This document shows positions 11,196-38,661 of a DNA stretch of 64,000 bases, piece after piece. The DNA comes from a bacterium (GTDB taxonomy: Bacteria; JAMCPX01). The translations under genes and the position numbers were made by a program. The stretch is from assembly GCA_021787665.1 (NCBI GenBank), contig JAJYLN010000004.1, positions 68,415-132,414 on the forward strand, read 5' to 3'. The notes beneath the pieces were generated by a model. It was not told where the DNA came from and ran no database searches. It saw only the letters and a program-made list of their open reading frames with translations. Position 1 is the first letter of the stretch. The number at the start of each line of letters is the position of its first letter.

Positions 11196-11729
11196 TTAAT
11201 TTTTCTCAACCTGATTGAAGTTGACCTCAACCGGCGTCGATCTGCCGAATATGCTGACCAGCACCCGCAGCCTTCCCTTGTCGGCCTTTACCTCCTCGAC
11301 TATCCCGTTGAAGCTCGCAAACGGGCCGTCTATCACCCGTACGCTCTCGCCCGTTTCGAATGACAGCTTGGGTTTGGGCTTTACCGTCCTTTCCTGAATC
11401 TCAGAGATAAGCCGGTTCACTTCCTCGTCCGGCACGGAGGGGATTGACCTGATGTCCTTTCCCCCACCGACGAAGCCGGTGACCATAGGAGTGGACTTGA
11501 CAATATAAAAGGTTTCCTCGGTCGGTTCCAGTTGTATAAGGATATAGCCGGGAAAGAACTTCTGCTTTGACTTTTTCTTGACGCCATTGACGATCTCGAT
11601 CACGTCGGCCTGCGGTACCAATATGGTGCCGAAGAGAGGTTCCTTCCCTATCCCCTTGATCTTCTTGATCAGGGCGTCCTTCACCTTTTCCTCATAGCCG
11701 GAATATGTATGAACAACGTACCACTTCAT
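11196..11729 (-). CDS. nusG: Transcription termination/antitermination factor NusG
   Basis: NusG-like sequence begins at [16 protein letters not shown] (NGN domain) and ends with a KOW-like C-terminus; the track ORF 11196..11852 carries a spurious N-terminal extension. The ATG at 11727-11729 overlaps the secE stop (ATGA). Confidence 0.93.
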
Positions 11730-29531: not shown

Positions 29532-30305
29532 TCACATCCCCACGATATGATAGCCAGCATCCACGAAGAGCACCTCGCCGGTTACTCCGCTGCTCATAGG
29601 TGAGAGGAGGAACAATGCGGCATCGCCGACCTCGTCCGCCGTTATGTTCCTTCCGAGGGGGGCCTTCTGGGGGTAGTATTCCATCATCTTGAGAAAGCCC
29701 TTTATCCCTCTCGCGGAGAGGGTGTTGACTGGCCCGGCCGATACACCATTGACCCGTATATTGCTCCTGCCGAGATCGTATGCGAGGTATCGTATAATAC
29801 TCTCGAGTGCCGATTTGGCTATCGCCATCACGTTGTAGCCCGGGATAACTACCTGGGAGGCTATGTAGGTCATTGCTATGATGCTTCCTCCCTCCTTCAT
29901 TAGCGGGGCGGCGTGTCTGGTAAGGGAGACGAGGGAGTACGAGCTTATGTCGAGCGCCGTGAGGAAGCCCTGTCTCGACATGTTGAGAAAACTACCGCCC
30001 AACTCTTCTCTCGGCGCGAAGGCGACACTGTGCACGAGTGCATGGATCGCATCATGTTTTCCGGCAATTTCACGGAACATTCCCTCAACCATGCCCTCGT
30101 TCTGTACGTCGCACTCGAAGATTCCGAGCGGAGCCATCCCGACAACCGCCTCTTCCACCCGCTCCTTCAGCGACTGGTTCGCATAGGTAAAGTACAGCCC
30201 CATCCCTGCCTGCTGCAGCTTCTGTGCGATATGCAGGGCTATGCTATGTTTGTTCACCACGCCGGTCACGAGACCGGTTTTTCCGTTGAGATCTATCGTA
30301 TACAT
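29532..30305 (-). CDS. fabI: Enoyl-[acyl-carrier-protein] reductase (NADH)
   Basis: 257-aa ORF with short-chain dehydrogenase fold and FabI-like catalytic Tyr/Lys region (YNVMAIAKSALES). Confidence 0.9.
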   Translation of the reverse strand: MYTIDLNGKTGLVTGVVNKHSIALHIAQKLQQAGMGLYFTYANQSLKERVEEAVVGMAPLGIFECDVQNEGMVEGMFREIAGKHDAIHALVHSVAFAPREELGGSFLNMSRQGFLTALDISSYSLVSLTRHAAPLMKEGGSIIAMTYIASQVVIPGYNVMAIAKSALESIIRYLAYDLGRSNIRVNGVSAGPVNTLSARGIKGFLKMMEYYPQKAPLGRNITADEVGDAALFLLSPMSSGVTGEVLFVDAGYHIVGM

Positions 30306-30321
30306 AGTCTGATCGTGAAAC

Positions 30322-30350
30322 GGGCGCCCGCCGCAAAGCGGCGGGTGCCC
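30322..30350 (-). terminator. GC-rich hairpin downstream of the DsbA-family gene (possible terminator, weak U-tract)
   Basis: Stem of about 13 bp (GGGCACCCGCCGC / GCGGCGGGCGCCC) followed on the minus strand by GUUUCACG. Confidence 0.35.
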
Positions 30351-30404
30351 GTCACTATCTGCTCCATCACAGGTCGTTTTTATCTGTCCAGCCTCACCCT
30401 CGCA

Positions 30405-31349
30405 CTACTTCAGTATCGCGTTTATGGCCTGCTCGAAATTTTGTTCAGGCTGTGCGCCGGTGATGATCCTGCCGTTTATCACGAAGGTGGGCGTCCCGGT
30501 AACCCCTATGCTGCTGCCCTCCTGCTGATCGGCCTCCACCTTGTCCTTTGTTTGCTGATTGTTCACGCACGCCTTGAACTTGCCCATAGAGAGCCCCTGC
30601 GCCTTCGCATAGCTGTTCAGCTTGTCGTTGATAGTTGCGGGTGTTATGGAACCCTGCTCCTGGAAGAGGTGGTTGTAGAAGTACCAGAAGGCGTCATGCT
30701 TCTGCAGGTACGCACAATCGGCGCCGATAGCCGCTATCATCGCCCAGGGGTGCATCGGCAGAGGGAAGCTCTTGTAGACGAGCCGTATCCTGCCCTTGTA
30801 CTTGTGCAGCAGGTCTTCGACTGTGCCGTACGCCCTGCCGCAGAACGGGCATTCGAAGTCGGTGAACTCCACCATGGTTACCTTTGCATCTGCCGGCCCT
30901 CTCGACGGCGAGCCCTTCAGGGTAATCTTGCTCAGCGTTTCCTTGAAGGGGTCTTCTGTCAGGTTCAGGACACTGCCGATTATCACGCGCGTGCGGTCCT
31001 TCGTTACATAGATGGTCTGCGTCTGCTTACGTGGACCCTGCGCGATCGTCACGACGGCCTGATCGAGTCCCGAGATATCCGAGGCCTTTATCTTGCTGAC
31101 GGAGAGGTTGACGCTCGGCGGGATATTGAATGCCTTGCGCATATACGAGGCTATCTTTCCCTGAATGCCGGCCTGGTGCTCCTCTGCGGCAGGCTGAACT
31201 ACCGGGGCAGGCTGCTGTTCCTGGCCCTGCACAGGGTTCTGTACAGGCTGTGGTGCGGCCCCGTTCGGGGCCGTAGCCGCCTCTTTCTTCGAGCATCCAG
31301 CGACCATCACGAAGGCGGCCACGATCAAGAGTATCAAGTTTTTTCTCAT
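30405..31349 (-). CDS. DsbA-family thiol:disulfide oxidoreductase lipoprotein
   Basis: 314-aa ORF with lipobox (MVAGCS), a Pro/Gln-rich linker and thioredoxin-fold active site CPFC (FTDFECPFCGRAY); 12 nt downstream of the acylase gene. Confidence 0.8.
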   Translation of the reverse strand: MRKNLILLIVAAFVMVAGCSKKEAATAPNGAAPQPVQNPVQGQEQQPAPVVQPAAEEHQAGIQGKIASYMRKAFNIPPSVNLSVSKIKASDISGLDQAVVTIAQGPRKQTQTIYVTKDRTRVIIGSVLNLTEDPFKETLSKITLKGSPSRGPADAKVTMVEFTDFECPFCGRAYGTVEDLLHKYKGRIRLVYKSFPLPMHPWAMIAAIGADCAYLQKHDAFWYFYNHLFQEQGSITPATINDKLNSYAKAQGLSMGKFKACVNNQQTKDKVEADQQEGSSIGVTGTPTFVINGRIITGAQPEQNFEQAINAILK

Positions 31350-31361
31350 TTCGTTCTCCTT

Positions 31362-34313
31362 TTACTTTATGTTCATCGGTTTATATGCGAATGCCCGGAA
31401 AAGGTCAACCTGATCGCCGAAGTTGGGGCCGACCGTGCCGGTGCCGTCCGGGTTGAGCCGTATAAAACCGTTCTCTCCCGGCGCAACGACGTTCTCGCCG
31501 AAGATAGGGTCGGTCAGATTGATGATCTGCATGTACGTGCTCCTGTTCTGGGACGGCGCCTTGCCGAAGCTCGTCGGTGGATTTATCGTGCCCATCAGCA
31601 TAGGGAATTGCTGTCCCTGAAAGTTGTCCAGTCCATCGAAGTTTATGTCATCGACCGGGATGTAGCCCCATGTCGTCGGGTCGGCCGGACTGAAGCTCGG
31701 GGGGAACCCCCCGCCGCTTGCCGGCTGACCCTTTGCAAGCTGGTCCATGGCGAGCTCGAGCGCGTAGATAATGACGTGGTCCCGATCCATCGGTACCCCG
31801 GCGGGGAGCACGGCGAACGCATAATAACTGCCCTGAGTAAAGCCGGCAAGCCCGGCCAGATAGTTTGCCGAGGTCGTCCCGGTGAAGCTCAGGGGAACGC
31901 CGGTGGCCGGGTCATCGAACAGGTGGAGCATCATATTGTAGGTACACTCGCCAAGAATGCCGCTCATCATGCCTCCATACAGCACCTGCCGTATAGCTTC
32001 CCACCACTTTGCGAAGATCATGGCACCGGGCTGTCCTATGACCGGGCTATAGCCGGCTACGCCGTACGTGATGGAATAGCCCGCCGGAGTGAAAATCTGG
32101 GTGGGGTCGGTAAAATAGCTGTTCCAGTTCTTAAGGATAGTAACCGCCTGGGTGATAAACGTCGATGTTGTCATGGTCACGAGAGGATCCTGTACACTCT
32201 TCAGATCCGCGTACGCGTTCTCAATGAACGGAATAAAATAAGGGCCCGCGACCGTTACATTCTGGTCCCCGTTGATCGTACCGACGTCCTTCTCGATGTT
32301 CTCCATGGCGGCGACGGTCAGTTTGTTCGGATTATGGGAGATGAGGAATGCCATCCTGTCCGACCGGAATATCTGACCCCAGTGCTCATCGCCGCCGTTG
32401 CCTTCCATGATGACACCGGGCACATTGAGAGGCTTGGTGTTCCAGTTTACCAGATAGCCGTTCGGTGGGTTTACGGAGTACAGCCATGAGCTGTACGGGA
32501 CAAACAGCTGTCCTCCCGGCCATGCGGACCATTCCCCGCTGCCGTCCCCCGGGTACGGCAGCCGATCGTCATAGCCCGCCGGGAAATGCGGCTCGCTGCC
32601 CGCAGACCAGAACGATATGTTGCCGCGCTGGTCCGCATACATGAAGTTATGTAGGGAGGTCACCTTTGCAACCGCGTCATTGAAGTCGAGCCAGTTCTTT
32701 GCGATGTTCATCCCCACAAACCCTTCGATGGTCGAATATTCCGTCTTCCAGAATGCTACCCTGTAGGTATAGGCGAGGCCGTGTGCGAGATCGAAAGAGA
32801 TCACGGGACCGTGGAAGTGCTGGCTATCGTCCACCCTGAATACATTGTAGGCAATGGGGCCCGGCCCGGTCGGGTTCCCGGCCTGATCGAGGTAGGATGC
32901 CGGCGCAGAAGGGTCCTCCCCGGCGTAATGGATCGTGTCCGAGATCCTCTCCATAGGGAGGTAGCTCCCGTTGTAGAGCACGCTGTAGTTGCTATTCGCG
33001 GTCTGGGGGTTGGTCGTAAATCCGGCACCCGCGGTATCGACCTGTTCGACATAGATCGTGGAGTCCTCTATCTCGCCGGATGTGGTCGTCCATCCATAGT
33101 CCTTCGTCATGCCGATAAGAATGACCGGCTCGCCCGGTATCTTCATACCGCCGACCGTTATGTCAGGGCTGTGCAGATACATCTCGTTGTCGATATTCGG
33201 CGTGGCGAAGCCCTCCTGCGGCCCGCCCCACAGGAGGGCTGAGTTGGTTGCCGATAGGGTGGGTGTGACTGCCCATGCGTTGCTGCCTTCCGTAAAGAAT
33301 ACGCCTAAATTTTTCCTCGTCTCAGTCATCTTCTGTATGTTGCCGTAAAAATCTTCGATGGCCTTCTCTACCGAGCTCCGCGGGATCGACGCGAGGAACG
33401 AATATTGATCCTGCGCAGGACTACCCGTCTGGTACGTATGAAGACTCGTCAGCGAGACACCTGGAGGAATCTGCGGCTTCGTCTGCATGGGCCCGCCCGG
33501 CATGATAGCGGTCCCTCCGGGCGAATTGTTCGGGATCGTGGTCGGTGCATTCGGGTCGTTGAGCCATCTGATATCATCGAAGACCTGTCCTGCATCGGTC
33601 GCTGCATTCGTAGCGCTCATACCCTGGCTCTGTTCAAACCAGCCTTTTAAATAATCAAGGTCGCCGAGGTCCTGAAGCTGTCTGCCGCCTCCCGATCCGA
33701 AAAAATCAACCAGGAGGTCGACAACCGCCATGACGTCCTCAGGTGTCCAGGGGCCCGGCTCGAACACCGTATTGCCGCCCGGCGCGGGCAGGAGCTTATA
33801 CGTTACGCCCCCCGGCAGGCCGTACCGGGATGTCAGTGATCTGAGATACCCGCCAAGCTGAAAAAATTCGTAGGGAACCTTCGCAAAGGCCGGATCCGAA
33901 TACAGGCTTTTGATATATGCATTTATGCCGTCGCAGTACGCAAGTATCGCATCCTTCGTCGTCGTGTCGGTAATGGCATTGAATGCGGCCTCCCGCTCCT
34001 GCGGCGTATAATAGAGGTACTGCCTCAGGGGTATGTCGGCGGCCCCGAGTGCCGGCAGGCCAATGATCTCGGACAGCGTTCCCGACCCGGCCCGTCTCAT
34101 CAGCTCCATCTGGACTAGCCTGTCCTGAGCGTCGGCCCAGCCTACGCCATAGAAAAGCGAATAATCATTGCCTGCATAGATGTGTGCGACCCCATAGCTA
34201 TCGCGCACGATTGTCGGCAGTTTCGAGCCGGATGACGACTTCGAGCAGCTCTGGATAGAGATGGCCGTGACCGCAAGTAAGCACAGAAGCGTTGCAGTGC
34301 ATGCTCTTTTCAT
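31362..34313 (-). CDS. Penicillin amidase (S45 Ntn-hydrolase) family protein, putative lipoprotein
   Basis: 983-aa ORF; signal peptide with lipobox (SIQSCS); internal GSNAWAV...LWGGPQEGF...LHSP block matches the beta-subunit N-terminal nucleophile region (SN.W) of penicillin/AHL acylases. Confidence 0.75.
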   Translation of the reverse strand: MKRACTATLLCLLAVTAISIQSCSKSSSGSKLPTIVRDSYGVAHIYAGNDYSLFYGVGWADAQDRLVQMELMRRAGSGTLSEIIGLPALGAADIPLRQYLYYTPQEREAAFNAITDTTTKDAILAYCDGINAYIKSLYSDPAFAKVPYEFFQLGGYLRSLTSRYGLPGGVTYKLLPAPGGNTVFEPGPWTPEDVMAVVDLLVDFFGSGGGRQLQDLGDLDYLKGWFEQSQGMSATNAATDAGQVFDDIRWLNDPNAPTTIPNNSPGGTAIMPGGPMQTKPQIPPGVSLTSLHTYQTGSPAQDQYSFLASIPRSSVEKAIEDFYGNIQKMTETRKNLGVFFTEGSNAWAVTPTLSATNSALLWGGPQEGFATPNIDNEMYLHSPDITVGGMKIPGEPVILIGMTKDYGWTTTSGEIEDSTIYVEQVDTAGAGFTTNPQTANSNYSVLYNGSYLPMERISDTIHYAGEDPSAPASYLDQAGNPTGPGPIAYNVFRVDDSQHFHGPVISFDLAHGLAYTYRVAFWKTEYSTIEGFVGMNIAKNWLDFNDAVAKVTSLHNFMYADQRGNISFWSAGSEPHFPAGYDDRLPYPGDGSGEWSAWPGGQLFVPYSSWLYSVNPPNGYLVNWNTKPLNVPGVIMEGNGGDEHWGQIFRSDRMAFLISHNPNKLTVAAMENIEKDVGTINGDQNVTVAGPYFIPFIENAYADLKSVQDPLVTMTTSTFITQAVTILKNWNSYFTDPTQIFTPAGYSITYGVAGYSPVIGQPGAMIFAKWWEAIRQVLYGGMMSGILGECTYNMMLHLFDDPATGVPLSFTGTTSANYLAGLAGFTQGSYYAFAVLPAGVPMDRDHVIIYALELAMDQLAKGQPASGGGFPPSFSPADPTTWGYIPVDDINFDGLDNFQGQQFPMLMGTINPPTSFGKAPSQNRSTYMQIINLTDPIFGENVVAPGENGFIRLNPDGTGTVGPNFGDQVDLFRAFAYKPMNIK

Positions 34314-34345
34314 ATCAGCCCCTCCTTTATCAGCAGACGTCAGAA

Positions 34346-34374
34346 AATATGGATTATTTTAGCAGGACCGGCAC
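34346..34374 (-). promoter_or_regulatory. Sigma70-like promoter for the acylase-DsbA operon (TTGCAA, 17-nt spacer, TAAAAT)
   Basis: Minus strand reads TTGCAAATCTGTGCCGGTCCTGCTAAAAT, about 30 nt upstream of the acylase ATG and just downstream of the preceding terminator. Confidence 0.45.
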
Positions 34375-34390
34375 AGATTTGCAAGCTCAC

Positions 34391-34421
34391 GATAAAAAGG
34401 GGCGAAGCACCGCTTCGCCCC
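34391..34421 (-). terminator. Rho-independent terminator after Ser/Thr-rich lipoprotein A
   Basis: Minus-strand RNA GGGGCGAAGC-GGU-GCUUCGCCCC followed by UUUUU, about 35 nt past the stop codon. Confidence 0.7.
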
Positions 34422-34454
34422 TGCCGATCCGGATACTTTGACTCTGTCGCTGTA

Positions 34455-35699
34455 TTACTTTATCCCGCACACTTGGGAGGCCGTCCCGCCGTTTACACTC
34501 ACGTCTGCACAGTCGCATGCCTGGCCGGTGAAGTTTAGGGTCAGGGTCTTGTCTGCAGTGAGCGTGAGCGTGCCGCCAGTGGGCCATTGACCGTTGCACG
34601 AGCTGTCATCGAACGTCACGTTGGTCAGCGTAGCCGTAAACTTGCCCGCATAGCTCGTCGACGAAGTCACAATCGTACCGCACGTGGACGTGCCACTCTC
34701 CGTGATTACGGCGCCGAAAGTGCCTGTGCCGTTGACTGTCCTCGTCGTGCTTGATGACACGCTTATAGTCATGGAGGCCTTGTTGTAGGCGCCCTGCTTC
34801 AGACTCAGGGATCCACCGCCGCTCGATGTGCCGGACGCGTCCATCTCGTTCCCATCATCGACACTGAACGCGAGCTGCGAAGGGCTGCCGGAGAACGCAT
34901 TGTCCACGTTCTCCCATCCGCTGAACGTGCCGGTAATGGTGTCGTTGCATGCGTCACCCGAGGGGGCACTGCTCACGCTGCCGGTCAGGGTGATCGATCC
35001 CTTGTTCGCGAAGCTGACGCTGGTCGTGCCCTGCACCAGGCCGGTGCCGTTTTCCGCGATGCTGCCTGCCACACTCACCTGCTCGCTTCCGCCGCTGGTA
35101 AACTGCATCCCTATCGTCAGGTTGAGTGTTGTGTTGATGCTCACATCCCCAACGCTGCTATCATAGCTCCCCTTGAGGGACGCGGTCCCGTTCAATGTCT
35201 GCGTATTCCCGGTGCTGGGGTCGACGCACGAGACTTTGGTCCACGTCAACGTCAGGTCTACGGTCCCCGAACCCGTGGTCCCGGTAGAGTTGTCCACTAT
35301 GGACGAGGGAGAGCACCCGCTCCCACTCGTCGCCGCGAGCTTCAACACCGACAAGGCGTTCAGTGCGGCGCCTTTGAACGACTGCGGCCTAACAACAAGC
35401 GTGTTTGCATTGTTGAGGACATAGGCAAGGATACTAACCTGTGGCCCAGCGGAGACCACGCTCGATACATCCGTGGGCACGCCCTGCGAGACAACCGACG
35501 AAATGACCTGACCCGCTGCACCGCCCACATTCGATACCGAAAGGCTTGCAGTAGGTATGGAATTAAGGGCACCGGAGACATTCCCACTTCCCCCGGAGCT
35601 CGTCGAGCTGCCGCATCCCGCACCGAAGCTGACTGCACCGGCGACCAACCCTACAATCGATAGCATACCGATCTTCTTTATGGGCTTCTTCATAGACAT
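34455..35699 (-). CDS. Ser/Thr/Gly-rich putative surface lipoprotein (paralog A), function unknown
   Basis: 414-aa ORF with signal peptide plus Cys (LVAGAVSFGAGCGSS); low-complexity S/T/G-rich sequence with scattered Cys pairs; paralogous to ORF 35835..37040; no catalytic motif recognised. Confidence 0.6.
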   Translation of the reverse strand: MSMKKPIKKIGMLSIVGLVAGAVSFGAGCGSSTSSGGSGNVSGALNSIPTASLSVSNVGGAAGQVISSVVSQGVPTDVSSVVSAGPQVSILAYVLNNANTLVVRPQSFKGAALNALSVLKLAATSGSGCSPSSIVDNSTGTTGSGTVDLTLTWTKVSCVDPSTGNTQTLNGTASLKGSYDSSVGDVSINTTLNLTIGMQFTSGGSEQVSVAGSIAENGTGLVQGTTSVSFANKGSITLTGSVSSAPSGDACNDTITGTFSGWENVDNAFSGSPSQLAFSVDDGNEMDASGTSSGGGSLSLKQGAYNKASMTISVSSSTTRTVNGTGTFGAVITESGTSTCGTIVTSSTSYAGKFTATLTNVTFDDSSCNGQWPTGGTLTLTADKTLTLNFTGQACDCADVSVNGGTASQVCGIK

Positions 35700-35715
35700 A
35701 CCTCCTTCTTTCTCT

Positions 35716-35744
35716 AAACTATCCTATACGTTATCGCTTGTCAA
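35716..35744 (-). promoter_or_regulatory. Promoter-like block upstream of lipoprotein A (TTGACA, 17 nt, TAGTTT), duplicated upstream of paralog B
   Basis: Minus strand GTGTGATCCGGATTATTGACAAGCGATAACGTATAGGATAGTTT; nearly the same block precedes paralog B. Confidence 0.35.
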
Positions 35745-35769
35745 TAATCCGGATCACACCCCATGCCAA

Positions 35770-35798
35770 ACAAAAAAGGGCGAAGCTACGCTTCGCCC
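35770..35798 (-). terminator. Rho-independent terminator after Ser/Thr-rich lipoprotein B
   Basis: Minus-strand RNA GGGCGAAGC-GUA-GCUUCGCCC followed by UUUUUUG; nearly identical to the terminator at 34391-34421. Confidence 0.7.
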
Positions 35799-35834
35799 TT
35801 CCAGTTATTCTACAACGGTTATATTTTCCCTGTA

Positions 35835-37040
35835 TTACCAGCACACCTGCGACGAAGTGGCACCGGTTACCGCGGCACAGCACTGTCCGGTACTACAACT
35901 GCTGCTGCTATAGGTAAAGACAAATGACTGAGCTCCGCTGGTAATCGTTAGTGTACCGCTCGAGGGGCAAAAGGTGCACACCGTGCTATCATAGGTGAGG
36001 TTGTCAAATGCAAATGAGTACTTCCCGGAATAGCTTGTTGTACCGGTCGTAATGCTTTGTCCATTGACAAGGTACGCCACACCTGCCGTACCGCTTCCAT
36101 TCAACACCGTCGTGGTTGCGGTCGTTGATATGGTCAGCGACGGGGTCGTCTGCAGATAGCTTCCCATCTTGATAGTGCCATTCGAAGTTGACGCATCGAA
36201 TTCATGGCCTTCGTTCAAAACCAGGGTAAATAATGAGGCATTCCCACTGAAGGTATCGTCAATGCTAAACCATCCTGAAAAGCCTACACTGCCCTGAGAA
36301 CTTGATTCTGAGCCCGTTAGATTAAGCGTTCCATCGACGGTATACTGAGCACTTGAAGATCCGCTAACCATGCCGCTGCCGGTGAAGGTAATACCGCCGT
36401 TCCATGTCATATTCATTGAAGCGCCGGAGAAGGTTTCGCCAAAGGAAAAATTGGTATAGGTAAGCTGTAAATCTGCCGTACCTGCACTTGAATCATACGT
36501 GCCTAACCATGAGACTACCCCATTTAAATTCATGGTAACGCCGCTGTAAGTACACGAAATGCCGTTATAGTCAACTTTTACGTCAACATTGGTCACGCTT
36601 CCGCTCGTTGTACTGTTATCCGTAACCGTAGGCGTGGCGCTGCAACCACTGTATTGAAGCGTTTTAAGAGAATTCAATTGATCGAGGATGGTCTGTTTCA
36701 GATACGTCGGTTTAATCACCAGCTTCGAAGGATTTTGAGTAATCATCGCTATCCCAAATGTCGGCAGATTAGTCGGATCTCCCGTCGGACTGTTTGTAAT
36801 AGACCCGACACTGGTGCTCTGATTAGCATAATTCGACGCATCCTGATTCACGGTCAAAGCCTGACTTGCGGCACCGCCGACATTTGACACCGAAAGGCTT
36901 GCGTTCGGAAGGGAGCTGAGCCCACCGGAAACATTACTTCCCCCATTGGATCCGGAGCTTGACGTGCTGCCGCAACCTGTACCGAGGCTGACCGCTCCGG
37001 CAGTCAGCAGTACAATGATTAGCATACTGAGTTTTTTCAT
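35835..37040 (-). CDS. Ser/Thr/Gly-rich putative surface lipoprotein (paralog B), function unknown
   Basis: 401-aa ORF with signal peptide plus Cys (LLTAGAVSLGTGCGS); N-terminal 60 residues nearly collinear with paralog A (GCGS.SSSGS..VSG.L.S.P.ASLSVSNVGGAA.Q). Confidence 0.6.
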   Translation of the reverse strand: MKKLSMLIIVLLTAGAVSLGTGCGSTSSSGSNGGSNVSGGLSSLPNASLSVSNVGGAASQALTVNQDASNYANQSTSVGSITNSPTGDPTNLPTFGIAMITQNPSKLVIKPTYLKQTILDQLNSLKTLQYSGCSATPTVTDNSTTSGSVTNVDVKVDYNGISCTYSGVTMNLNGVVSWLGTYDSSAGTADLQLTYTNFSFGETFSGASMNMTWNGGITFTGSGMVSGSSSAQYTVDGTLNLTGSESSSQGSVGFSGWFSIDDTFSGNASLFTLVLNEGHEFDASTSNGTIKMGSYLQTTPSLTISTTATTTVLNGSGTAGVAYLVNGQSITTGTTSYSGKYSFAFDNLTYDSTVCTFCPSSGTLTITSGAQSFVFTYSSSSCSTGQCCAAVTGATSSQVCW

Positions 37041-37062
37041 AGACTTGCCTCCTTTTTCTGCT

Positions 37063-37091
37063 AAGTTATTCTATAGTATCGTGCTTGTCAA
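37063..37091 (-). promoter_or_regulatory. Promoter-like block upstream of lipoprotein B (TTGACA, 17 nt, TAACTT)
   Basis: Minus strand TGTGATCTTGATCATTGACAAGCACGATACTATAGAATAACTT; shares the TGTGATC..GAT.ATTGACAAGC core with the block upstream of paralog A. Confidence 0.35.
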
Positions 37092-37290
37092 TGATCAAGA
37101 TCACAGGTCAACAATTTCATAACGATTCTTATGATTACTGAGCTCCCCAAGACACAGGGCCTTTGCTATTGTTTTTACTCTATACCTATCAAGAATATAT
37201 AGTTACCTTACTCCATACACAGAGGCGTAGCCCCATAATTCCCCCCCTGGGAATTGAGTACCCAAAAAAGTGCTTGTAAAATCGTAAAAG

Positions 37291-38661
37291 TTGTTTCACT
37301 ATAGACAGATGGATAGCACGACAGTGGACAGGATCGCCGGGCGGTTGTCTGCGCTTGCACGGGAGCACGCGGTGGAGGGATACGAGGCGTACCTTTCCGA
37401 GACGAGCAAGACCTCCATCTCTCTCGACGATAACCGGGGCATAGAAACACTGCACGCCGATGAGGAGCGTGCTATCGCCGTACGGGTACTCAGGGACCAA
37501 CGGCTCGGCTTCTCGTTCAGCTTCAACCCCTCGGACATCGCCCTCGAAGAGGCCTTCAAAAGGGCCCTGGACAGCACCGCGGTGCTCGAGAGGCATCCCT
37601 TCTCCTTCGTGGGAAACAGCCCGGACACCGCAGGCGCGGACCTATTCTACGACAGTACTATAGAGAGCACGCCGAACGAGTACAAGCTCGGTCTGCTGAA
37701 CGCGCTTATCGACGCGGTACACATCGATAGGAGGATCGTGAAGGTGGAAAAGCCTTCCTACGAGGAGACGATCTCCTCCGTGAGTGTGATGAACTCTTCC
37801 GGCGTACTGAAGCAGTCGAGGACTACCAGGTTCGGTCTGGGCCTGTCCGTGATCGCACGGCAGGACCGCGATTCCAACATTACCTGGGACTTTCAGGGGG
37901 CAAACACCTTCGGCACACTCGACGCGCACAGGCTCGGAAAAGGCTGTGCGGCGCTGGCCCTGAAGACGCTCGGTGGCGAAAGGCTGCGGACCGGGTCCTA
38001 CGATGCAGTGTTTACCCAGCTCGTCGCGTCGCAGTTCCTCGGCATACTGGCGCGCTCGTTCGCCGCGGACGCCGTGTACAAGAAGACCTCCCTGCTCGCG
38101 GACAGGCTCGGTCAGCGGGTCCTTCCGGAGCACATCACGATCACGGACGACCCCTTGCTGAAGGACGGGCTGGGGTCCGTGCCCTTCGACGCCGAGGGCT
38201 CGCCTTCCGTACGCAAGCCGCTTGTAGATAACGGCGTTGCAGCTACCTTCCTCTACGACAATCTCTACGCGTCGCTCATGGCGGCGCATACGACCGGCAA
38301 TTCAGTACGGCCCTCAGTCACCCAACCACCGTCCATAGGCTCCACCAACCTTGTCCTGGGCTCCGACAGGACCGGTGAAGAGGACTTGGAGCGGGCGCTC
38401 TACGATGGCCCGGTCATAACGGAGCTCATGGGCGTGCACACGGTCAACCCGGTGACCGGGGAATTTTCCCTGGGCGCGCGGGGATACGCCGTAAAGTCCG
38501 GGGTCTTCCATGCACCCCTGAAGGACATCACGGTTGCCGGTAACCTGTTCGACCTTCTGATGAAGGTCCGGGCCACCGGCCGGGATCAGCTTCTCTACGG
38601 CACGATCATGACACCGTCGCTCCTCATAACGCAACTGAAGATCGCGGGGGCGGACGCATGA
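37291..38661 (+). CDS. TldD/PmbA-family metalloprotease
   Basis: 456-aa ORF (likely start at MDSTTVDR, 37309) with the conserved C-terminal TldD/PmbA region (GS.NLVL..G...LITELMG.HT.NPVTGEFSLGARG). Confidence 0.75.
   Translation: MFHYRQMDSTTVDRIAGRLSALAREHAVEGYEAYLSETSKTSISLDDNRGIETLHADEERAIAVRVLRDQRLGFSFSFNPSDIALEEAFKRALDSTAVLERHPFSFVGNSPDTAGADLFYDSTIESTPNEYKLGLLNALIDAVHIDRRIVKVEKPSYEETISSVSVMNSSGVLKQSRTTRFGLGLSVIARQDRDSNITWDFQGANTFGTLDAHRLGKGCAALALKTLGGERLRTGSYDAVFTQLVASQFLGILARSFAADAVYKKTSLLADRLGQRVLPEHITITDDPLLKDGLGSVPFDAEGSPSVRKPLVDNGVAATFLYDNLYASLMAAHTTGNSVRPSVTQPPSIGSTNLVLGSDRTGEEDLERALYDGPVITELMGVHTVNPVTGEFSLGARGYAVKSGVFHAPLKDITVAGNLFDLLMKVRATGRDQLLYGTIMTPSLLITQLKIAGADA

Follow-up and report, generated by a model that had tools for sequence, protein, structure and literature searches.

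Two adjacent genes in a 64 kb stretch of the bacterial contig JAJYLN010000004.1 (assembly GCA_021787665.1; the whole stretch is called the window below) appear from their sequences to encode members of a small, previously unannotated and narrowly distributed family of Cys-containing, all-beta lipoproteins. We refer to them as gene A and gene B. The main new result is a conserved and family-specific element upstream of such genes, in which a short box is fused to the -35 hexamer of a predicted promoter. According to our reading, A and B are ancient paralogs, each organised as a self-contained unit, from a small uncharacterised family of lipid-anchored envelope proteins. In this overall picture, to which we give a probability of about 0.6, the products would be abundant in the envelope or at the surface, stabilised by disulfides and controlled by a global regulator. 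Our confidence in any specific role of A or B is much lower.

A conserved box-promoter element and a common unit structure

An earlier, sequence-only reading of this DNA had described a pair of adjacent genes. Both are indeed present, but both have to be placed on the minus strand. The same upstream block had been reported before each gene, and we could confirm this: TGTGATCNNGATNATTGACAAGC occurs exactly twice in the window, where shuffled sequences give an expectation of 0, and the geometry of the two copies is identical. Each unit consists of the box, TTGACA, a 17-nt spacer, TAnnnT, 22 nt containing AGGAGG, and the ATG. The same -35/-10 geometry was found in 7 aligned promoters, and the transcription starts of A and B used below were derived from it. 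Gene B probably starts at its second ATG (35693), because AGGAGG and then 7 nt stand upstream of it as in gene A, and because public gene calls use the same position (412 aa, P0001).

The element is not restricted to the window. We fetched loci from other genomes (denoted Lnnn; homologous proteins are denoted Pnnnn) and found the box (G)TGTGATCTTGATCA fused to TTGACA in 9 of the 11 different promoters of family genes, each time 62–66 nt before the ATG. It lies upstream of the A and B orthologs at L012 and L013 (the B ortholog box reads CGTGATCCGGATCA), of P0010 at L004 (51% identical to B), of P0009 at L007/L008 (46% identical), of P0003 and P0008 at L006 and L021 (37–44% identical), and also of P0012 at L025. 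The DNA farther upstream is unrelated among the box-bearing loci, and the proteins at some of them are just 37–46% identical. The 14-mer box is present in one copy per locus and at a constant position. A metagenome scan for the 19-mer version of the box gave 7 matches, two of which are upstream of family genes; the remaining 5 have no Shine-Dalgarno sequence and start codon downstream and look like chance. Elsewhere in the window the box is absent, and other CRP-like sites were not found beyond chance. The box is probably a transcription-factor site.

FNR sites have the form TTGAT-N4-ATCAA, and Rex operators are of the TGTGA-N6-TCACA type. In class II CRP/FNR promoters, the site is centred at about -41.5 and overlaps the -35 hexamer. 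The promoters of A and B resemble the latter in core sequence and in the overlap with the -35 hexamer, and the centre of their box lies ~41.5 bp before the presumed transcription start. The A box contains an inverted repeat of the TGTGA-N6-TCACA type, and its 16-bp core TGTGATCTTGATCATT agrees at 13 of 16 positions with the E. coli CRP consensus core TGTGATCTAGATCACA; the strongest known E. coli CRP site is AAATGTGATCTAGATCACATTT (PMC2504297). The gene B box of the window (TGTGATCCGGATTATT) is a weaker CRP-type match than the A box. From these similarities we infer a dimeric regulator of the CRP/FNR or Rex type, and activation and repression are alike compatible with the arrangement.

We also observed that the conserved box TGATCTTGATCA (37092–37105; also L004, L006, L007, L012, L021 and L025) holds two GATC motifs that are 7 bp apart. 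The gene B box in the window has lost one of them (TGATCCGGATTA).

The other end of the units is equally well defined. The sequence-only reading had described near-identical terminators after each gene, and the hairpin GGGCGAAGC-N3-GCTTCGCCC followed by a T-run is found exactly twice in the window, with 0 expected. Both copies have the features of intrinsic (Rho-independent) terminators, namely GC-rich hairpins after the stop codon with T5–T6 tails. All family genes that we looked at finish with a AAAGGGCGGC-loop-GCCGCCCTTT hairpin, and the same terminator type is seen at L006, L007, L012/13, L021, L023 and L025. An Rfam scan of 34000–37400 did not yield any RNA family. The predicted promoter-ORF-terminator cassette (ORF, open reading frame) therefore recurs as a unit in other genomes, in line with the suggestion that each gene is its own transcription unit.

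A small family of lipoprotein-type precursors

A and B are lipoprotein-type precursors by sequence and are predicted to be lipid-anchored. Both had been taken for lipoproteins before, and both are recognised by a PROSITE-like rule (K/R among the first 7 residues, a hydrophobic stretch free of charges, and the lipobox [LIVMFWSTAG]2-[LIVMFYSTAGCQ]-[AGS]-C with the Cys at ~15–35). The lipobox is LGTG-C with Cys23 in gene A and FGAG-C with Cys27 in gene B, counted from the 35693 start. Of 28 aligned sequences, 18 pass the rule, among them nearly all full-length members; the other 10 are N-terminally truncated or near-misses (e.g. P0020, P0025, P0026 and P0028). The cleavage context across the family is ...G-C-G-S-S. 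The family shares with Lgt/LspA-processed lipoproteins (PROSITE PS51257-type) the basic n-region, the hydrophobic core, an invariant Cys at 20–32 and small residues at +2 and +3 (CGSS). However, the mature domain of A and B matches none of the lipoprotein families described in Pfam, NCBIfam or the PDB.

The two proteins are 37% identical over their full length (BLASTP, E 4e-43). Their mature forms have an unusual composition: Ser and Thr make up 31–33% and Gly 12–14% of the residues, charged residues just 7–9%, and the isoelectric point is ~4.1. Each protein has 9 Cys, i.e. the lipid Cys and eight further ones. Aromatic residues amount to 4.4% in B and 8.7% in A; the C-termini are GIK in B and VCW in A. 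So little charge, so much Ser/Thr and such strong expression signals suggest that an envelope protein is made in large amounts for a structural or surface role, and that it is not an enzyme. We had also considered N-glycosylation, but dropped the idea since the excess of N-x-S/T sequons over composition expectation is just mild (p 0.14–0.17 for A and B, 0.004–0.6 for homologs).

Along the family alignment, an N-terminal motif is followed by a poorly conserved stretch and then by a well conserved beta-rich domain. The motif, (S/N)SLPNAxL(T/S)VxNVGxAAxQ, stands just after the linker. The Cys columns at B residues 158, 368, 395, 397 and 411 are invariant or nearly so, and additional pairs are clade-specific. 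Up to four candidate disulfides may form in each protein.

Word-seeded searches of 5.8 billion proteins returned only 3 and 7 relatives. When 1.84 billion cluster representatives were searched with a HMMER profile, in full, a family of 23 representatives emerged. A scan of GTDB species genomes yielded just 2 loci, as it relied on a single peptide pattern. All named sources are metagenome-assembled genomes of an uncultured 'Deltaproteobacteria bacterium' or 'bacterium'; the isolate name of one source, FK_Sedi_A_Bin.102, points to sediment. The sequence-only reading had seen no recognisable catalytic motif in A and B, and the profile searches found no known family. No Pfam or NCBIfam profile identified a family for A or B, apart from one chance-level NCBIfam match on the leader of B (0.033; 14.9 bits, cut-off 60). 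For the core domain, none of the 28 aligned members has a Pfam match. Single-sequence searches and 28-sequence profile searches of the PDB returned nothing or chance matches to the phage gp5 beta-helix (E 0.4–0.7).

One partial homolog, P0002, is named 'FapA family protein' at NCBI. We rejected this assignment: P0002, A and B give no Pfam match at E <= 1, to FapA or to any other family, and the FapA profile (PF03961) is matched by none of the 28 members. The resemblance to the FapA family is limited to a Ser/Thr/Gly-rich beta composition. The name is misleading and should not be propagated.

Two distant members are fusions. P0015 (481 aa) carries an N-terminal fibronectin type III (fn3) domain, and P0018 (714 aa) a C-terminal NHL/SGL beta-propeller. 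Such additions are common and typical of extracytoplasmic proteins.

Origin of the A-B pair

Judging from the sequences, the duplication that separated A and B is ancient, because the two genes fall into separate clades and their synonymous sites are saturated (proportion of synonymous differences, pS, 0.75). In a neighbour-joining tree, A groups with P0005, P0006 and P0007, and B with P0002, P0010 and P0013; the B group joins the P0009/P0012 clade before it joins A. Two closer relatives, L012 and L013, also have A and B in tandem. In a low-GC relative (locus-tag prefix M1381), the A ortholog is located beside the trp operon and the B ortholog before a pair of acylase and DsbA genes, which also follows gene B in the window.

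The base composition of gene A sets it apart. The GC content at third codon positions (GC3) in the window is 0.52 for gene A, 0.74 for gene B and 0.69–0.80 for the neighbours; the corresponding values in L012/L013 are 0.47–0.48, 0.81 and 0.72–0.78. The overall GC content is 0.46–0.51 over 35800–37290 (gene A plus the upstream intergenic region) versus 0.55–0.63 on either side, and this stretch coincides with cassette A. In L012 (1680–2711), PmbA and gene A are separated by an enoyl-CoA hydratase gene and a 65-aa ORF, while in the window (37041–37290) they are directly divergent. Because of this difference, the edge beside cassette A is a rearrangement point. Cassette A was probably acquired laterally, before the three high-GC genomes split, and placed in their ancestor next to an existing cluster of B, acylase and DsbA genes.

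The leaders of A and B had been called near-identical. They are in fact more conserved than the bodies, but their identity is only about 65–68%: within the first 70 alignment columns, 15 of 23 and 25 of 37 residues are identical, compared with 11 of 46 and 99 of 274 (24–36%) beyond. The same holds at the nucleotide level. The pS between A and B is 0.51 in codons 1–62 (36855–37040 versus 35508–35693) and 0.79–0.86 beyond, and identical codons are used for 64% of the conserved residues in the first 62 codons, but for 35–43% beyond. The low pS at the 5' end could be due either to old gene conversion or to constraint at the nucleotide level. At the 3' end, the two window terminators share the derived stem GGGCGAAGC/GCTTCGCCC, whereas six other loci have GGGCGGC/GCCGCCC (L006 a close variant). 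The two compensated stem changes present in both window terminators point to concerted evolution of the cassette ends, and the shared derived stem together with the low 5' pS suggests that these ends were homogenised long ago. A recent gene conversion between A and B was rejected, since there are no near-identical tracts and the best stretches reach 73–78% over 76–95 nt.

The sequence-only reading had proposed that the whole transcription unit was duplicated. This stands as far as A and B are paralogs with matching cassettes; a simple local duplication does not fit the separate old clades, the unlinked orthologs, the saturation and the composition of A. It is true that the units are arranged head to tail with identical geometry, that L012 and L013 conserve the tandem, and that the cassette ends resemble each other, all of which would be expected if one ancestral cassette had been duplicated in situ and both copies had diverged in place. 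However, gene A has a GC3 of 0.47–0.52 in all three tandem genomes, against 0.74–0.81 for B and 0.69–0.80 for the neighbours, the low-GC stretch matches cassette A, B groups with P0010, P0013, P0009 and P0012 before A, and the orthologs are unlinked in the low-GC relative. We therefore regard a plain in-situ tandem duplication as unlikely.

Predicted structure

AlphaFold2 (AF2) models of both proteins show ~12 long antiparallel strands (15–19 residues) that form a simple meander; short strands carrying Cys residues come after it. The mean predicted local distance difference test score (pLDDT) for gene A is 72.5 (about 85 over residues 135–401; predicted template modelling score 0.72), and that for gene B is 63.6 (about 80 over residues 127–414). 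The conserved N-terminal motif reaches a pLDDT of about 90 in the gene A model. Along the predicted strands, V/L/I/F/M/G alternate with T/S/N/D, so that the sheet has two distinct faces; the polar face consists of Thr and Ser to 39% in A and to 53% in B, and Gly makes up 17% of the hydrophobic face. A Foldseek search against the PDB gave no significant match (best E 0.014, template modelling (TM) score at most 0.25), and hhalign did not support an internal duplication of the beta domain (probability 1%).

The alternation of hydrophobic and polar residues along the strands, and the terminal Trp of the gene A product, could suggest lipoproteins that form an outer-membrane-embedded beta-barrel or a pore, with the sheet as the barrel wall that is closed alone or by oligomerisation. 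However, neither the E-value nor the TM-score of the best structural match supports this, and the identity of A and B to barrel walls (TonB-dependent transporters, porins) is 4–8%. The hydrophobic face is rich in Gly, B has few aromatic residues and ends in Lys, and eight conserved Cys with a dedicated DsbA-like neighbour are unusual for barrels. The lipoprotein leader is a further difference. A and B thus do not display the C-terminal aromatic beta-signal (no consistent signal is seen), the aromatic girdles or the low number or absence of Cys that characterise barrels. Their resemblance to barrel walls is generic and no evidence of membership, and we consider a barrel or pore quite improbable. 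As stated above, a disulfide-stabilised, lipid-anchored envelope or surface protein is the reading that we prefer.

Neighbouring genes

The sequence-only reading had placed an S45 acylase and a DsbA-like gene next to the pair. Both are found downstream of gene B on the same strand (Table 1), and the synteny is kept in L013 and L004. The closest solved relatives of the acylase are penicillin G acylases, and those of the second protein are DsbA/BdbD. With 983 aa, the acylase is longer than its solved full-length relatives (770–824 aa). Its ortholog in L013 is split into ORFs of 701 and 288 aa, probably by a frameshift or an assembly error.

Acylase genes accompany only the B clade and follow the B orthologs in L013 and L004. 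A DsbA-like gene comes after family genes in four independent contexts. It is located directly after the family gene in L007/L008 and L023; in three genomes (the window, L013 and L004) it comes after the acylase and is thus one gene removed. The recurrent link of the family is therefore to the DsbA-like gene, not to the acylase. Since the DsbA-like gene recurs beside family genes, a link to disulfide formation would fit the conserved Cys columns. Secreted Cys proteins encoded beside a dedicated DsbA/BdbD/ScsC-like oxidoreductase offer a parallel, as both the recurrent neighbour (a CPFC thioredoxin-fold lipoprotein) and the conserved Cys columns are found here. In the present case, however, transcription is from separate units, with a promoter of its own for the DsbA-like gene, and the substrate relation is putative. 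A promoter-like site of the acylase lies behind the gene B terminator, and therefore the acylase-DsbA pair would be a third, separate transcription unit.

In three genomes, a conserved promoter-like element of its own is seen at the DsbA-like gene, (G/A)TTGACCTTTTnAnATCTTTnACnTATAA with TTGACC...TATAA. A search of the literature for acylase, lipoprotein and DsbA in combination found nothing relevant. The description of the region as an 'envelope-remodelling locus' is a conjecture.

A and B could also be binders of hydrophobic ligands that cooperate with the S45 acylase: the sheet would capture an acylated substrate (an N-acyl compound or a lipopeptide) and present it to the enzyme. The window, L013 and L004 share the order B-acylase-DsbA despite an identity of only 51–74% between the B orthologs, all four products have lipoprotein leaders and would hence share a compartment, and one face of the sheet is extensive and hydrophobic. 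However, L007/L008 and L023 have the DsbA-like gene without an acylase, both neighbours are missing at L002/L009 and L006, a promoter-like site specific to the acylase lies behind the gene B terminator, and no structural match to known lipid-binding folds was found. A cooperation of this kind is rather doubtful, and we keep to the reading of A and B as structural or surface proteins.

Further observations concern the wider surroundings. A gene of ~800 aa with choice_anch_I/Lactonase and Phosphoesterase matches is present within 6–9 kb of the family gene at three otherwise different loci. In the low-GC L002 (8476–9843), and also in L009 and L003, the A ortholog is preceded by a Ser/Thr-rich, lipoprotein-like protein of 455–470 aa that has no Pfam match; before it lie a 77-aa ORF and a B12-binding radical SAM gene. 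An 858-aa ORF (29913–32489, plus strand) runs antisense to the acylase and DsbA genes and is almost certainly a spurious frame of GC-rich DNA.

Table 1. Positions of the genes and signals discussed in the text (window coordinates unless a locus is named)
Feature	Position	Strand	Description
Gene A	35835..37040	minus	ORF, predicted 401-aa lipoprotein precursor; signal peptide, Ser/Gly linker, SLPNASLSVSNVGGAA motif, poorly conserved helical stretch, all-beta domain ~135 to 401, 8 Cys
Gene B	34455..35693	minus	412-aa paralog of A; longest ORF 34455..35699, 414 aa
Upstream block, two copies	35736..35758 and 37083..37105	minus	each starts 65 nt before the ATG
Gene A box	37092..37105	minus	TGTGATCTTGATCA; inverted repeat like the CRP consensus core, right end runs into the -35 hexamer
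Gene A predicted promoter	37063..37091	minus	TTGACA 37086..37091, 17-nt spacer, TAACTT 37063..37068; AGGAGG 37048..37053
Gene B box	35745..35758	minus	variant TGTGATCCGGATTA
Gene B predicted promoter	35716..35744	minus	TTGACA 35739..35744, 17-nt spacer, TAGTTT 35716..35721; AGGAGG 35701..35706
Gene A intrinsic terminator (predicted)	35774..35802	minus	13-bp stem, 3-nt loop, T-run; dG -22.9 kcal/mol, z -4.9
Gene B intrinsic terminator (predicted)	34398..34422	minus	11-bp stem, 3-nt loop, T-run; dG -23.0 kcal/mol, z -2.9
Other terminators	L006 11200-11221; L007 ~11255-11280; L012 4345-4370, 5625-5650; L021 1302-1323; L023; L025
Acylase promoter-like site	34356..34384	minus	TTGCAA-17-TAAAAT, preceded by TG; similar sequence at the same place in L013
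S45 penicillin-G-acylase-like protein	31362..34313	minus	983 aa, leader IQS-C; Penicil_amidase E 5e-99, profile 3-668 of 675
DsbA/BdbD-like thioredoxin-fold lipoprotein	30405..31349	minus	314 aa, leader VAG-C, CPFC; Thioredoxin_4 3e-30, DSBA 2.5e-22
DsbA-like promoter-like element	L007 11290-11345; L023 ~1800-1860; L025 ~1510-1570
~800-aa choice_anch_I/Lactonase gene	L004 1-1165; L006 1341-3806; L007 17735-20197

Sequence variability and selection

The divergence of A and B had been read as the pattern of variable surface proteins. This view is not supported by the comparison with related genomes, where the orthologs of A and B are 74–81% identical. Between the window and L012/L013, the identity is ~80% for A and ~74% for B, which is similar to the values of the neighbours (acylase 70%, DsbA-like protein 77%, PmbA 77%, FabI 85%, MetK 90%). 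The gene-wide ratio of nonsynonymous to synonymous substitution rates (dN/dS) is 0.09 for A and 0.23 for B, compared with 0.06–0.20 for the neighbours; these ratios are rough, as dS is near saturation, and selection at individual sites may escape them. We found no simple-sequence repeats, homopolymer tracts, invertible segments or silent cassettes at the locus, and no flanking inverted repeats besides the two terminators. By these measures the orthologs of A and B are under purifying selection and evolve like ordinary envelope proteins.

Contingency surface antigens, i.e. duplicated cassettes with diversified bodies whose conserved leaders and regulatory blocks would allow exchange, are therefore very unlikely. 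Some observations speak for them: conservation is higher in the leader and regulatory ends than in the bodies, the first 62 codons show less synonymous divergence, the two window terminators have changed together, copy number and location vary between genomes, and the L004 B ortholog is more diverged (51%) than the adjacent acylase (72%). Against them, the dN/dS values lie within or just above the range of the neighbours, ortholog identity is like that of acylase, DsbA and PmbA next to the pair, the old clades of A and B each have one-to-one orthologs, the means of switching listed above were not found, and the N-terminal motif, which is family-wide and modelled with high confidence, would be a structural element and not merely a recombination handle.

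Proposed mechanism

The scheme that follows is deduced from the sequence features and from their conservation, which are what we observed. A dimeric regulator of the CRP/FNR type (or Rex type) would bind the box and switch the promoters. As an activator it would act from a site centred near -41.5; as a repressor it would occlude the -35 hexamer. The precursors would be exported, lipidated by Lgt and cleaved by LspA at the lipobox Cys. The mature protein may then fold into a large amphipathic antiparallel beta-sheet with one face of Val/Leu/Ile/Phe/Gly and the other of Thr/Ser/Asn/Asp, and up to four disulfides, introduced by the DsbA-like lipoprotein encoded nearby, could staple this fold. On the evolutionary side, cassette A would have been inserted first, and a limited homogenisation of the cassette ends would have followed.

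Several points weigh against this picture. The right half-site of the box is TCATT, not TCACA. Class II CRP/FNR promoters usually do without a perfect TTGACA, whereas the promoters of A and B keep it; such a hexamer is unusual for activator-dependent promoters of this class and fits repression equally well. A tblastn search of the window and the fetched loci with E. coli CRP and FNR revealed no homolog (nothing below E 0.1). Two family promoters are without the box, those of the A-clade gene at L002/L009 and of P0013 (L023). As the A-clade orthologs of the low-GC lineage thus do not have it, this lineage is not an obvious donor of cassette A. Codon selection specific to gene A, instead of transfer, could in principle explain its low GC3. 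The alignments used for AF2 were shallow, with 10 and 28 sequences. Finally, the lipidation, disulfides, cellular location and abundance of A and B are all deduced rather than observed.

A bolder version of the scheme is improbable, but can be formulated. In uncultured bacteria of acid-mine sediment, the family could represent a new fold class of lipid-anchored, disulfide-stapled half-barrels, which might form a surface layer or an oligomeric pore on or in the outer envelope, with dedicated maturation by the DsbA-like protein and control of the regulon by a CRP-type regulator, to which the two GATC motifs of the binding site would perhaps add methylation-sensitive switching.

Significance

What we report is mostly a tidy annotation; no long-standing open question is touched by it. 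Two "hypothetical proteins" can now be assigned to a defined family from a single lineage, with a lipoprotein leader, an N-terminal motif, an all-beta domain and four candidate disulfides. The extreme composition, with one third Ser/Thr and less than 10% charged residues, and the open meander sheet that is predicted without a close structural match make the proteins a target for structure determination. With the box pattern (TGTGATCNNGATCA), it may become possible to trace the regulator in these uncultured bacteria, along with the other members of its regulon.

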